Shown here: positions 11,696 through 29,284 of the stretch, in pieces
How positions within the stretch are numbered: the stretch's first letter is position 1
How the letters are laid out: each line of letters opens with the position of its first letter
Assembly (NCBI GenBank): GCA_043741355.1
Contig: JAYUAL010000438.1
Location: 1-39,517 of the forward strand
Length of the DNA: 39,517 nt
Reading direction: 5' to 3'
Source: Gemmatimonadales bacterium
GTDB taxonomy: Bacteria > Gemmatimonadota > Gemmatimonadetes > Gemmatimonadales > GWC2-71-9
Position numbers and translations under genes: made by a program
The notes under the pieces: model-generated
The model's database searches: none
What the model was told of the DNA's origin: nothing
The model's input: the letters and a program-made list of their open reading frames with translations, nothing else

Positions 11696-11709
11696 TGTAA
11701 ACGTTTACA
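11696..11709. promoter_or_regulatory. LacI-family operator 1 (perfect palindrome TGTAAACGTTTACA)
   Basis: This is a perfect 14-bp palindrome matching the generic LacI/CcpA-type operator consensus. It lies in an AT-rich trough 106-119 nt upstream of the LacI-family gene. Confidence 0.6.
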
Positions 11710-11715
11710 GTACGT

Positions 11716-11729
11716 TGTAAACGTTTACA
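11716..11729. promoter_or_regulatory. LacI-family operator 2 (identical TGTAAACGTTTACA)
   Basis: This is an identical second copy, exactly 20 bp centre-to-centre from operator 1. Confidence 0.6.
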
Positions 11730-11814
11730 TTTGATCGGCCGGGCGAATCTATGCTGGTATCTTGTCCCGAGCACGCCGCTCTGCGCGATCGTCTGCGTTC
11801 CCCCGAGGCACTGC

Positions 11815-12819
11815 ATGGTGACCATCAGGGACGTCGCACGCGCCGCAGGAGTCTCGGTCGCTACCGCCTCCCGTGCGCTGCACAAAGGCCATCTGGTGGC
11901 CCACGACACTCGCGAGACCGTGCGGGCCGCGGCCGACCGGCTGCTCTACAGCCCCCACCGCGGCGCCCGCAGCCTCATCACCAGCCGGACCCTCACGATC
12001 GGGGTGCTGCTTCCCGATCTGTACGGCGAGTTCTTCTCCGAAGTCATTCGCGGCATCGACCAGACGGCCCAGGGGGCGGGGTATCACTGCCTCCTCTCCA
12101 GTGCCCGCCATGGGGGGCCAACCCTCGAGGCGGCGCTCCGCTCGATGCACGGACGGGTCGACGGGCTGGTGCTGATGTCGCCCGAATTCAATGGAGACCT
12201 CTCCAAGCGTGCGCTCCCCACTGGTTTCCCCGTCGTCCTGCTGAACTGTCCTCCTACTGATGCCGCCCACGACAGCCTCACGGTCGCGAACTACGAAGGG
12301 GCCCATGCGATGGTCCGGCATCTGGCGGAACTCGGGCACACCCGGATCGCGATCATCAAGGGCGCCGAGGGAAATTTCGATGCGGCGGAGCGGCTACGCG
12401 GGTATCGCGCCGCTCTCCGGGCGGTCGGTCTCCGATTCGCGCCGGAGCTCGTCGTCCCGGGCGACTTCAGCGAAGCGGCCGGCGACGCCGGCGCGCGCGC
12501 CCTGCTTCGGCTGGCCGACCGGCCGACTGCGATCTTCGCCGCCAACGACGGGATGGCGATCGGCACGCTCTTCGCGCTTCGCGATGCCGGCCTCAGGGTG
12601 CCGGAGGACGTCGCCATCGGCGGCTTCGATGACATCCCGATGTCCCGGTATTTGGAGCCGGCTCTGACATCGGTTCATGTGGACATCAGCGCGCTGGGGG
12701 AGCGCGCGGCAGCCCGCCTGTTCTTGGCGCTCGAGGGCCCGCCCGATACCAATTTCAGCCGTGAGACGCTGCCGACGACGCTGGTCGTGCGGCGCTCCTG
12801 CGGCGCCCGAGGGAACTGA
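11815..12819 (+). CDS. LacI-family transcriptional regulator
   Basis: Internal ATG at 11815. The N-terminal HTH is MVTIRDVARAAGVSVATASRAL. The C-terminal part is a periplasmic-binding-protein-like sugar-binding core. Confidence 0.9.
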   Translation: MVTIRDVARAAGVSVATASRALHKGHLVAHDTRETVRAAADRLLYSPHRGARSLITSRTLTIGVLLPDLYGEFFSEVIRGIDQTAQGAGYHCLLSSARHGGPTLEAALRSMHGRVDGLVLMSPEFNGDLSKRALPTGFPVVLLNCPPTDAAHDSLTVANYEGAHAMVRHLAELGHTRIAIIKGAEGNFDAAERLRGYRAALRAVGLRFAPELVVPGDFSEAAGDAGARALLRLADRPTAIFAANDGMAIGTLFALRDAGLRVPEDVAIGGFDDIPMSRYLEPALTSVHVDISALGERAAARLFLALEGPPDTNFSRETLPTTLVVRRSCGARGN

Positions 12820-26824: not shown

Positions 26825-26825
26825 T

Positions 26826-28178
26826 TCAATGCCCCAGCACCTCGCCGTGGGAATCGATCACGCTGGCGTAGAACCGGGCGCTCGCCTTGGGGGTGCGGCG
26901 CTGGCTTTCGAAATTCACGTGGTAGAGACCAAATCGTTTGGAGTACCCGGCGCTCCACTCGAAGTTGTCCATCAGCGACCAGGCGAAATATCCGCGGAGG
27001 TCCACCCCCAGCCGCATCGCTTCATACGCCGCTCGCAGGTGATCCCGCAAGTAGGCCACCCGCAGCGGATCGTCCAGCAGTGGGCCGTCCACTGCCGACG
27101 GATCGTCGAACGCCGCGCCGTTCTCGGTAATGTAGAGAGGAATGCTGCCGTATCGGTTGTGGACCCACATCAACACGTCGGTGAGCGCGGGGGGATACAC
27201 TTCCCAGTCCACCGTGGTGTGGATGTGCTGGTCCTGGCGCACCCGGACCGCGCGGAGCGGCTCGGCGGTTGGATCGAAGGTGGTCACATTCCGGGTGTAG
27301 TAGTTGATGCCGAGGAAGTCGAGCGGTTGTCCGATCAGGGCAAAGTCCTCCGCAGGGTGGGCCGCCCAGCCCGCGCCGTACACCTCGGCAAGCTCCTCGG
27401 GATACCGGCCCAGGAAGACCGGATCCAGGAACTGCCGGTTCATGTAGGCATCGGCGCGACGGGTGGCGGCAATATCCTCGGGGCGGTCCGACGCGGGGTA
27501 CTTGGGCTCCAGATTCACCACCAGCCCGGCCTGCCTGCCCCCCTCGGCGCGGATGGCCTGTATGGCGGCACCGTGAGCGCGGAGCAGGTTGTGGCTGGCT
27601 ATGGCGGCTTCGGAAAGGCTCGCGTGTCCCGGCGCGTGGGTGCCGCGCAGGTACCCTGCATCGCTCACTACCCAAGGCTCGTTGAGCGTGGCCCAGAGCG
27701 CCACCCGGTCGCCCAGCCGGCGCACCACCACGGCGGAATAGTCGGCAAACCATCCGGCGATGTCCCGGTTGAGCCAGCCGCCCTGATCGTCCAGCGCGGC
27801 GGGCAGATCCCAGTGATAGAGTGTTGCGCTCGGGGAAATGCCCTGTTCCAGCAGGCGATCCACCAGCCGATCGTAGAACGCGAGCCCCGGCAGATTGACC
27901 GCTCCGCGGCCCGAGGGGAGCACCCGGGCCCACGCAATGCTGAACCGGTAGGCGGAAAGACCGAGCTCGCGCATGAGCAGCACATCGCTTTCATAACGCC
28001 GGTAGTGGTCGCAGGCCACGTCCCCGGTGTCACCACTCTCGGTGGCCCCCGGCGTGTGAGTAAAGCGATGCCAGATGTTGGGGCCCGCCCCGTCCGCCCG
28101 GGGCGAGCCCTCGATCTGATAGGCGGAAGTGGCCGCCCCCCACAGAAAGCCGGGGGGAAACTGGTATATCGAAGGCAT
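26826..28178 (-). CDS. GH1 beta-glucosidase
   Basis: Internal ATG at 28178. The N-terminus is FPPGFLWGAATSAYQIEG. The catalytic motifs TLNEPW (acid/base Glu) and YITENGAAF (nucleophile Glu) are both present. Confidence 0.9.
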   Translation of the reverse strand: MPSIYQFPPGFLWGAATSAYQIEGSPRADGAGPNIWHRFTHTPGATESGDTGDVACDHYRRYESDVLLMRELGLSAYRFSIAWARVLPSGRGAVNLPGLAFYDRLVDRLLEQGISPSATLYHWDLPAALDDQGGWLNRDIAGWFADYSAVVVRRLGDRVALWATLNEPWVVSDAGYLRGTHAPGHASLSEAAIASHNLLRAHGAAIQAIRAEGGRQAGLVVNLEPKYPASDRPEDIAATRRADAYMNRQFLDPVFLGRYPEELAEVYGAGWAAHPAEDFALIGQPLDFLGINYYTRNVTTFDPTAEPLRAVRVRQDQHIHTTVDWEVYPPALTDVLMWVHNRYGSIPLYITENGAAFDDPSAVDGPLLDDPLRVAYLRDHLRAAYEAMRLGVDLRGYFAWSLMDNFEWSAGYSKRFGLYHVNFESQRRTPKASARFYASVIDSHGEVLGH

Positions 28179-28195
28179 CGGCGAAGGACATCCCC

Positions 28196-29284
28196 ATGGC
28201 CAGGGTAGTGCTGGAAGGCGTCCGGAAGATATACCTTGACCGCGGCGCGGTTCACGTCGCGGTGCACGAGATCGACCTCGAGGTCCGGGAAGGGGAGTTC
28301 CTGGTGCTCGTTGGGCCAACGGGCTGCGGCAAGACCACGCCCCTCCGCATGGTGGCGGGGCTGGAGAGCATTTCGGAGGGGACCATCCGCATCGGGGACC
28401 GGGTGGTGAACAACGTGCCCGCGCGCGACCGCGACATCGCTATGGTGTTCCAGAACTACGCCCTCTATCCCCACTTGACCGTGCGCGACAACCTGGCCTT
28501 TGCGCTCAAGCTCCGGAAACAGCCCGCCGCCACTATAGAAGCCCGGGTGCGGGAAGCGGCCCAAATGCTCAACATCGAGGACTTGCTGGGCAGGAAGCCG
28601 CGGCAGCTTTCCGGCGGGCAACGGCAGCGGGTGGCGCTGGGGCGGGCCATCGTGCGGCACCCCCAGGTGTTCCTGTTCGACGAGCCGCTCTCCAACCTCG
28701 ACGCCAAGTTCCGGGTTCAGATGCGCCGGGAGCTGGCCGCGCTGCGAAGGCGGCTCGGCACCACCACCATCTACGTCACCCACGACCAGGTCGAGGCCAT
28801 GAGCCTGGGAGATCGGATCGTGGTGATGCACCAGGGCCGGGTGCAGCAGATCGGCACCCCGCTGGACATCTACGACCGCCCCGCCAACCTCTTCGTGGCC
28901 GGCTTCCTCGGTACTCCACCGATGAATCAGATTCGCGGGCGACTGGTGCGGCGGGAGGGGCCAGCGTTCGAAGCCGAGGGGAGCGAGCTGATTCTCCGTC
29001 TACCAGACGGCGCTGCACCGGCCGCCCCAATGGAGGGGGCCGTAATCCTGGGGGTCCGCCCTGAGGCCATTCATCCCTACCCAGGCACTCCCGGATTTGA
29101 GGGAGTCGTAGAGTTTGTGGAGCCTTTGGGTTACGAGTCGGTCGTGACGGTCGGGACGGGCGGCATCTCGATCACTATTCGGGTCGAAGCGAACGCCACT
29201 CCATCGGTTGGTCAGGCGCTGGCCTGTGCCATCGAGCCTGCCGCGCTTCATTGGTTCGACGCGGTCTCCGGCGTCCGGCTGTGA
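28196..29284 (+). CDS. ABC transporter ATP-binding protein of the MalK/MsiK/UgpC type
   Basis: The motifs present are Walker A GPTGCGKTT, the signature LSGGQRQRVALGRA and Walker B VFLFDEPLSNLD. There is also a C-terminal TOBE-like regulatory domain. Confidence 0.9.
   Translation: MARVVLEGVRKIYLDRGAVHVAVHEIDLEVREGEFLVLVGPTGCGKTTPLRMVAGLESISEGTIRIGDRVVNNVPARDRDIAMVFQNYALYPHLTVRDNLAFALKLRKQPAATIEARVREAAQMLNIEDLLGRKPRQLSGGQRQRVALGRAIVRHPQVFLFDEPLSNLDAKFRVQMRRELAALRRRLGTTTIYVTHDQVEAMSLGDRIVVMHQGRVQQIGTPLDIYDRPANLFVAGFLGTPPMNQIRGRLVRREGPAFEAEGSELILRLPDGAAPAAPMEGAVILGVRPEAIHPYPGTPGFEGVVEFVEPLGYESVVTVGTGGISITIRVEANATPSVGQALACAIEPAALHWFDAVSGVRL

Follow-up and report, generated by a model that had tools for sequence, protein, structure and literature searches.

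A predicted beta-1,2-glucan scavenging locus in a Gemmatimonadales bacterium and its exported putative glycosidase X1041

How do bacteria consume the beta-1,2-glucans of other bacteria? Glucans of this kind, cyclic or osmoregulated periplasmic, are made by many Proteobacteria and are virulence or symbiosis factors in Xanthomonas, Brucella and rhizobia. To our knowledge, little is known of their consumption in soil. The question is raised by a locus at positions 11696-29284 of contig JAYUAL010000438.1 (assembly GCA_043741355.1) from a Gemmatimonadales bacterium. The whole 39,517-nt stretch that was analysed is called the window here; its G+C content is about 67%, and its closest genomic relatives are metagenome-assembled genomes of Gemmatimonadales. 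The ten genes of the locus encode a LacI-family repressor, an outer-membrane transporter, an ATP-binding cassette (ABC) importer, glycoside hydrolases (GHs) of families GH144 and GH1, a GH94 phosphorylase and a large exported protein of 1041 residues, termed X1041. The locus probably serves, under LacI control, to scavenge foreign beta-1,2-glucans, namely cyclic and osmoregulated periplasmic glucans (OPGs) released by other bacteria, and belongs to the carbohydrate utilization loci containing TonB-dependent transporters (CUT loci). This degree of confidence refers to the substrate class and the overall flow.

The pathway that we infer, with its substrates, cellular locations, step order and inducer, leads from the outside to the cytoplasm. 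(i) When inducer is absent, LacI would occupy two 14-bp palindromes, arranged in tandem about 85 bp in front of its own gene and overlapping a promoter-like site. (ii) One transcript would extend from lacI to the GH94 gene. (iii) An Oar-like TonB-dependent transporter would move the glucan, or large oligomers, over the outer membrane. (iv) A lipid-anchored GH144 endo-glucanase would cut the glucan to short sophoro-oligosaccharides (Sop2-5). (v) Exported X1041 would supply a second, non-redundant envelope step, the best guess being attack on the alpha-1,6 ring-closure linkage, on branches or on resistant stubs that GH144 cannot cut. (vi) A Lin1841-type lipoprotein, two permeases and a MalK-type ATPase would import the oligomers. 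(vii) A cytoplasmic GH94 enzyme of the cyclic glucan synthase (Cgs) type would phosphorolyse them from the non-reducing end, releasing alpha-glucose-1-phosphate. (viii) The GH1 enzyme would release glucose by hydrolysis of sophorose and further short products.

Enzymes, importer and substrate

An initial annotation of this DNA had assigned the locus to beta-1,2-glucan or sophoro-oligosaccharides, and had named two sequence results that would speak against the assignment: failure of the 15853-17295 product to match PF10091, and grouping of the GH94 protein with beta-1,4- or beta-1,3-specific phosphorylases. The assignment survives both. The product of 15853-17295 (+) matches PF10091 with 257.3 bits (cut-off 27; E 1.5e-76). 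Its best solved relative is XCC2207, or XcSGL (8xul; 567 bits, 56% identity over 443 residues), a demonstrated beta-1,2-glucanase (Nakajima et al. 2025, PMC12102758), and it scores 150 bits against CpSGL (5gzh). The protein is thus predicted to be an endo-beta-1,2-glucanase, given its 56% identity to a proven enzyme. The initial annotation described it as a periplasmic lipoprotein. The lipobox (LLFA-C26) is present; the periplasmic face cannot be deduced from it, because a lipobox shows anchoring only and not the side on which the protein is held.

The solute-binding protein (17292-18596, +; SBP_bac_1 and SBP_bac_8 domains) is likewise a predicted lipoprotein, with lipobox FLGA-C35. Its best match is 3uor, the uncharacterised Xanthomonas orthologue from X. 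citri called 'MalE' (407 bits). The second-best solved relative is Lin1841, a binder of Sop3-5 (238 bits), and the next family follows at 123 bits, so that Lin1841 is by a clear gap the closest characterised binding protein and a Lin1841-type specificity is suggested. Permease 1 (18593-19486, +) and permease 2 (19483-20304, +), both with BPD_transp_1 domains, are 57-88% and 59-91% identical, respectively, to their counterparts in syntenic loci of the genome collection. The importer is completed by a MalK/UgpC-type ATPase (28196-29284, +) with ABC_tran, OB_MalK and TOBE_2 domains, which scores 468 bits against NF008653. This gene had been called a divergent MsiK-type ATPase. It is divergent, but as a locus-linked gene conserved in synteny it is not a shared MsiK.

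The GH94 gene (23423-26824, +) encodes 1133 residues with no signal peptide. Both GH94 Pfam domains are found, PF06165 with 464 bits in two stretches and PF17167 with 415 bits. Ranked by bit score, which is not a tree, the protein falls with the phosphorylase module of Cgs, which is beta-1,2-specific (865 bits), and not with the chitobiose (277 bits), cellobiose (266 bits), laminaribiose (71 bits) or cellodextrin (44 bits) phosphorylases. Residues 7-1085 align end to end with the module, at about residues 1544-2790 of Cgs, in two parts (126 and 743 bits); some 200 residues that lie between these parts in Cgs are missing from the window protein. The catalytic aspartate is shared: D801, in a GDWND motif, aligns with D2528 of RrCGS, the reported catalytic residue. 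In Cgs the module is fused to glycosyltransferase and cyclase domains, whereas in the window it is a separate soluble protein within a catabolic operon. A parallel had been drawn in the initial annotation to the 1,2-beta-oligoglucan phosphorylases (SOGPs) of Firmicutes. It fails, the lineage being different. Assignment as an SOGP (EC 2.4.1.333; Lin1839, LpSOGP) was rejected at a score of only 20.8 bits (E 5.5e-4) to PDB 5h3z, the structure of LpSOGP (PMC5309861); a free-standing Cgs-type module takes its place.

True SOGPs do occur in loci of this kind. A Rokubacteria locus (L080) carries a GH94 gene at 1546-5310 (+) whose product is of the SOGP type, with 629 bits to 5h3z, and its neighbours match those of the window: GH144, binding protein, permeases, X1041 and GH1. 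The Cgs-type and SOGP-type lineages therefore appear interchangeable, and the presence of either in otherwise matching loci is as expected from a shared role. Many loci of Gemmatimonadaceae have no GH94 gene at all, and X1041 is directly followed by GH1. Because so many loci do without GH94, phosphorolysis looks like an energy-saving accessory rather than a core step.

The predicted cytoplasmic GH1 beta-glucosidase (26826-28178, -) matches PF00232 with 526.6 bits (E 5e-158) and TIGR03356 with 593.7 bits (cut-off 478.5). Its start was placed at 28178, which is M48 of the open reading frame (ORF), and not at the ORF start, 28319. Identity to the counterparts in syntenic loci is 60-74%.

A second Cgs-type GH94 gene lies at 4-2091 (+), where it is cut by the contig start. 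The encoded sequence shares 53% identity with the GH94 of the locus and reaches 635 bits against Cgs. Genes for EamA, amidase and BNR/sortilin proteins follow downstream, as they do in the syntenic contig L083. Just as the window gene is truncated by the end of its contig, the L083 counterpart is cut, at 1172 residues; the listed homologues reach at most about 1210 residues, many of them partial. A complete free-standing relative of the locus GH94, of 1281 residues, is found in Methylocaldum (L079). The 5' gene may encode either such a free-standing form or the terminal part of a complete cyclic glucan synthase.

Operon, regulation and outer-membrane transport

Every gene in the list of the initial annotation is present and has the family given to it, as judged from Pfam and NCBIfam matches. 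The genes from lacI to GH94 are tightly packed. A gap of 38 bp separates lacI from the transporter gene and one of 55 bp separates the latter from GH144; five overlaps of 4 bp then lead to GH94. These are ATGA at 17292, 18593, 20301 and 23423, and GTGA at 19483, exactly as had been annotated. From gene spacing alone, the eight genes are probably carried on a single transcript. GH94 and GH1 are convergent, with 1 nt (26825) between their stop codons, and GH1 and the ATPase gene are divergent, with 17 bp (28179-28195) between their start codons. The same 17-bp spacing of GH1 (-) and ATPase (+) recurs in two related loci (L085 and L086), and the gene pair is kept in many others. These gaps are so small that any promoters or terminators there must lie within coding sequence.

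The regulator gene (11815-12819, +) specifies a LacI helix-turn-helix domain (Pfam LacI) and a sugar-binding core (Peripla_BP_1/3/4), and palindromes lie near it, the three features expected of the LacI family. The ORF (11731-12819) opens at TTG 11731. The likely start is ATG 11815, which yields 334 residues; the orthologues have 329-337. Its effector cannot be assigned, because the NCBIfam matches stay below every equivalog cut-off. The dual operators of the initial annotation (11696-11729) were found as two perfect tandem copies of the 14-bp palindrome TGTAAACGTTTACA, at 11696-11709 and 11716-11729. They conform to the type TG.AA.CG.TT.CA and lie about 85 bp upstream of the LacI start. With three mismatches or fewer, 0.12 sites are expected by chance, as against the two observed, and in 100 shuffles a pair never arose. 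A -35/-10-like pair at 11704-11731, a match to consensus only, overlaps them. With up to two mismatches, the motif is present in 26 related loci, and wherever its position was compared (Gemmatimonadota, Acidobacteriota and Holophagales loci, Xanthomonas) it stands upstream of the LacI gene. In Xanthomonas sacchari it also precedes the GH144 gene and ugpC. This recurrence in 26 loci, together with the additional X. sacchari sites, argues for a conserved regulon. Within the window, the search at up to four mismatches gave no extra operator near the transporter, GH144, GH1 or ATPase genes; one weak site lies at 29319.

The transporter gene (12858-15797, +) encodes an Oar-like protein with CarboxypepD_reg (PF13620), OMP_b-brl_4 (PF25183, 171 bits) and TonB-dependent receptor (PF00593) domains, the last scoring 35.9 bits (cut-off 27) and identifying the 22-strand barrel. 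Foldseek searches with the AlphaFold2 model matched TonB-dependent transporters over plug and barrel, most closely FusA (E 3e-28) and YddB (TM 0.73), and on this model the protein has a TonB-dependent transporter fold. FusA and YddB transport large (protein) substrates. As regards a TonB box, a stretch VTV.A...VETRTSEV that follows CarboxypepD_reg in the alignment consensus was noted by eye. The initial description of a TonB receptor without SusD is correct: no SusD-like gene adjoins, and GH144 follows after 55 bp. The layout is consequently not that of a polysaccharide utilization locus of the Bacteroidota type, which has a SusC/SusD pair. All four component classes that define a CUT locus, namely a TonB-dependent transporter, a transporter of the inner membrane, one or more carbohydrate-degrading enzymes and a sugar regulator in one cluster (Blanvillain et al. 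2007, PMC1790865), lie within 11696-29284.

The arrangement is widespread. A scan of genomes with X1041 as query found at least 591 stretches that encode it, and the ten window proteins were mapped onto 80 loci that were kept. At least eight loci, all of Gemmatimonadota, contain the full set in the same order (L001, L002, L005, L006, L008, L010, L060 and L071). The set minus GH94 is found in three further loci and two metagenome contigs (L017, L022, L061, L085 and L086). Other lineages, among them Acidobacteriota, Krumholzibacteriia, Eisenbacteria, Ignavibacteriae and Xanthomonas, have part of the set, and a Croceibacterium plasmid carries GH3, transporter, GH144 and X1041. Such recurring gene order indicates that the arrangement is not due to chance and that the seemingly hybrid layout is a widespread, stable design. 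All-versus-all clustering of the ORFs in 82 loci revealed no widely conserved partner beyond the ten genes; MdoG and a family 2 glycosyltransferase (GT2) appeared in six. The other large ORF clusters in this comparison are most likely antisense ORFs.

X1041 and the origin of the glucan

X1041 (20301-23426, +) has five domains: a CBM11-like carbohydrate-binding module (CBM; residues 19-173), a CBM32 or F5/8-type-C domain (185-299), a beta-supersandwich (330-545), an (alpha/alpha)6 barrel (557-936) and a terminal beta-sandwich (937-1040). The AlphaFold2 model is of high quality (predicted local distance difference test, pLDDT, 90.4; pTM 0.87). These domains bear out the initial description of a CBM/(alpha/alpha)6 protein. 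The pathway drawn at the time gave the protein no role, which does not fit an exported protein that is conserved better than any other partner in the system. A short hydrophobic N-terminus is common to all the close homologues, and distant ones have textbook Sec signal peptides; because such signals run through the family, it is predicted to be exported.

The catalytic part has no sequence relative in the PDB, either by phmmer or by profile search. Matches there were limited to the CBM32 and CBM11 modules, with hits at E>0.01 to MmpH and GH133, and Pfam and NCBIfam returned CBM32 and sub-threshold six-hairpin matches only. Foldseek gave clan-level matches (TM 0.4-0.6, 8-15% identity) to GH15, with dextran dextrinase as the top hit and glucoamylases, and to GH94, GH133, GH116, GH78, GH95 and GH65. 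Membership in GH15 or clan GH-L was considered and rejected: there is no GH15 Pfam match, TIGR01577 reaches 29.6 bits where 820.7 are required, and the resemblance is confined to the fold (11-15% identity). The family comprises 1174 representative clusters at E<=1e-30. In the barrel, ten acidic residues show a conservation of 98% or more among 149 diverse members (D624, E672, D674, E741, D753, D815, D817, E867, E904 and D918), the pattern of an enzyme and not of a mere binding protein. X1041 is a candidate for a new glycosidase family; its catalytic domain has no characterised relative.

A link to beta-1,2-glucans comes from other genomes. In six loci (L049, L054, L059, L062, L070 and L080), which belong to Competibacteraceae-like Gammaproteobacteria, Binatia and Rokubacteria, X1041 adjoins one to three opgG/opgD-type genes (PF04349, which is GH186; E 8e-206). 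The X1041 gene is located at about 10001-13100 in these loci, and at 2085-5261 in L070. These neighbours tie X1041 to periplasmic beta-1,2-glucans independently of GH144. The substrate itself may call for such an enzyme. According to a 2026 preprint, GH144 together with beta-glucosidase leaves a "non-degradable glucopentaose" from alpha-1,6-cyclised beta-1,2-glucans (bioRxiv 10.1101/2025.04.21.649730). Complete use would then need an extra envelope enzyme, for which X1041 is the obvious candidate. Among possible reactions, the most attractive candidate that can be inferred is attack on branch stubs or on the alpha-1,6 linkage that closes the ring; if this is true, X1041 would remove the glucopentaose left behind. 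We propose tentatively, at somewhat worse than even odds, that X1041 founds a large exported family of glycoside hydrolases or transglycosylases which act on natural beta-1,2-glucans, with an activity outside the known families, and which serve scavenging in loci with a TonB-dependent transporter and turnover of the cell's own glucan in opgG/opgH loci.

Two homologues on records labelled as plasmids deserve mention. In Methylocaldum sp. GT1BB (L079; NZ_CP194902.1), an X1041 that bears a classical signal peptide is paired with the 1281-residue GH94, and the two stand isolated among the housekeeping genes ligA, zipA, smc, tig and clpX; the title of this 5.3-Mb record, 'plasmid unnamed', is likely a mislabel. 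In X. sacchari (L081; NZ_CP010410.1), the homologue at 14001-16898 is in three pieces in different frames with no annotated coding sequence, and for these reasons probably represents a pseudogene or results from a sequencing error. Its 508-kb record carries zwf, glk, pgl, edd and scpA and is probably a chromosome fragment.

The opg-linked loci raise the question of whose glucan is degraded. The module might recycle beta-1,2-glucans that the cell itself keeps in its periplasm or secretes, as in OPG or cyclic glucan turnover after, for example, an osmotic upshift. This would account for the opgG/opgD-type neighbours in other lineages, and some of the six loci add further fitting genes: GT2 in four (L054, L059, L062 and L080), ABC importer genes in four (L049, L054, L062 and L080) and GH94 in two (L062 and L080), in both of which all these genes lie on one strand. 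Xanthomonas, a maker of cyclic glucohexadecaose, has the locus, and a second Cgs-type GH94 lies at the 5' end of the window. Recycling is nonetheless unlikely for the locus under study. The window and its closest relatives add a TonB-dependent transporter and LacI to the operon, the signature of uptake from outside, and both are absent from all six opg-linked loci. No opgG/opgH-like gene is detectable in the 39.5-kb window, and the 5' GH94 resembles the free-standing forms of 1100-1280 residues and not a demonstrable synthase.

That the glucan is of a different kind (cellodextrins, laminarin or a mixed-linkage glucan), the beta-1,2 call being an artefact of annotation transfer, is very improbable. 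The GH1 and binding-protein families are indeed generic, relatives of the CBM11-like and CBM32-like modules of X1041 bind beta-1,4 or beta-1,3-1,4 glucans or chitosan, and relatives of the GH94 are labelled 'cellobiose phosphorylase' in their sources. Three independent proteins nevertheless indicate beta-1,2 linkages: GH144, the binding protein of the Lin1841 clade, and GH94, with its wide margin for Cgs over any beta-1,4 enzyme. The SOGP-type GH94 in the Rokubacteria version and the link of the module to opgGH genes agree with this, and no cellulase or laminarinase family is among the Pfam matches of the locus. Least probable of all is a biosynthetic or remodelling pair in which GH94 builds linear beta-1,2 chains from glucose-1-phosphate and X1041 acts as a transglycosylase, such as a cyclase: glycoside phosphorylases are reversible, the top Foldseek match of X1041 is a GH15 transglucosylase, and the two genes stand isolated in Methylocaldum and without detectable other locus genes in several Competibacteraceae loci, but their products are predicted to occupy different compartments, as X1041 is exported and GH94 has no signal peptide, the window pair belongs to a catabolic-type operon with repressor, importers and beta-glucosidase, and many loci retain X1041 while dropping GH94.

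Several points weigh against the scavenging of foreign beta-1,2-glucans as set out here. The support comes from comparisons of sequences and structures and from the literature. The literature yielded no assay of a free-standing Cgs-type GH94, and the closest solved relatives of the GH1 protein are generic beta-glucosidases. In the transporter the Plug domain PF07715 is not matched even at E<=10, and the model (pLDDT 74 overall) is poor in the plug region, with residues at about 130-300 at pLDDT 40-65; a homologue, P0505, does bear a PF07715 annotation, and the Xanthomonas counterpart XCC2208 was reported in 2007 to be without a canonical plug (PMC1790865). Co-regulation of GH1 and the ATPase is unproven, as neither has an operator within four mismatches, and promoter-like and terminator-like matches within the operon do not exceed chance and so speak neither for nor against a single transcript. 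For the reaction of X1041, family comparisons gave nothing usable: hhalign against the window GH94 reached a probability of 14%, and against an Aspergillus niger glucoamylase sequence 0.4%.

Related systems and neighbouring genes

The initial annotation held that this combination had not been characterised. This is literally true, because no system of the kind has been tested as a whole. The architecture itself is not novel, with Xanthomonas, Ignavibacterium album and the CUT concept as precedents; the type of system has already been sketched, and the discovery value lies in the free-standing Cgs-type GH94 and especially in X1041.

The same outside-to-cytoplasm pathway was drawn for I. album by Kobayashi et al. 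(2022), who marked it explicitly as speculation (PMC8861115). The cluster IALB_1177-1187 shares with the window a TonB transporter, one or more GH144 enzymes, a Lin1841-type ABC importer and a GH94 homologous to the C-terminal domain of Cgs. Only its GH35 transferase IaSGT has been characterised, and it has no beta-glucosidase homologue (PMC8861115). A related locus of an uncultured Ignavibacteriae bacterium (L075, 208-17063) also has an X1041 homologue. It differs from the window in lacking LacI and GH1, in an extra GH2-like gene and in a short GH94 without the extra N-terminal domain; this protein, of 795 residues, scores 537 bits against Cgs and 467 bits against cellobiose phosphorylase. 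An ABC importer and two GH144 genes, one with a type IX secretion system sorting tail, are also encoded there.

In X. sacchari the genes for LacI, TonB-dependent transporter, GH144, binding protein, two permeases and X1041 stand in the order of the window, with the operator motif and with a ugpC ATPase gene nearby. The Xanthomonas stretch has neither GH94 nor GH1, and its transporter is only 30% identical to that of the window. Individual Xanthomonas components have been studied: the glucanase XcSGL has been characterised and the structure of the binding protein solved (3uor). No literature was found that treats XCC2203-2209 or XAC2310 as one system; only XCC2208 is mentioned, as the transporter without a canonical plug. 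The sux locus of X. campestris comprises the same four CUT classes, with a LacI-type regulator and no SusD (PMC1790865). The window locus differs from sux in its substrate, in an ABC importer instead of a transporter of the major facilitator superfamily, and in having two envelope enzymes and a phosphorylase.

Two further clusters share parts of the proposed pathway. The Gram-positive cluster lin1838-1841 of Listeria innocua combines ABC import of Sop3-5 with a cytoplasmic GH94 (the SOGP Lin1839) and a beta-glucosidase (the GH3 enzyme Lin1840), and its binding protein Lin1841 is homologous to that of the window (238 bits). An outer-membrane step, GH144 and X1041 are all missing; the GH94 is of a different lineage, and the glucosidase is GH3 as against GH1 in the window. 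Streptomyces griseus SGR_2422-2427 (PMC12369401) unites an endo-beta-1,2-glucanase, a Lin1841-type ABC importer and a GH1 enzyme (SGR_2426). The glucanase is of GH193 and not GH144, and there is no TonB-dependent transporter, GH94 or X1041.

Taken with its relatives, the locus indicates a standard toolkit for the consumption of beta-1,2-glucans in Gemmatimonadota, Acidobacteriota and other abundant soil phyla. The free-standing Cgs-type GH94 is a possible new reagent for the synthesis of beta-1,2-oligosaccharides. The main target is X1041, whose family numbers more than 1000 sequence clusters and keeps company with GH144 and with opgG/opgH genes. Its characterisation could complete the degradation pathway of cyclic glucans, including the alpha-1,6-closed virulence factor of Xanthomonas.

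The surroundings of the locus hold further genes. Just downstream, at 29855-31195 (-), lies a gene for a GH109-like NAD-dependent enzyme (GFO_IDH_MocA and GH109_C domains) with a twin-arginine-like N-terminus. It was considered as a member of the system and rejected; because none of the related loci mapped carries such a gene, it is probably unrelated. Towards the 5' end, positions 2001-4000 have a G+C content of 0.635, compared with about 0.67-0.70 around them, and contain, besides short ORFs that match no family, a small ORF (3104-3751, -) with a nucleotidyltransferase domain. This region may be a small inserted element. A BNR/Asp-box protein of the sortilin-Vps10 type, 1249 residues long, is encoded at 6272-10021 (-) beside the amidase gene (4716-6275, -), and the pair is kept in the syntenic contig L083.

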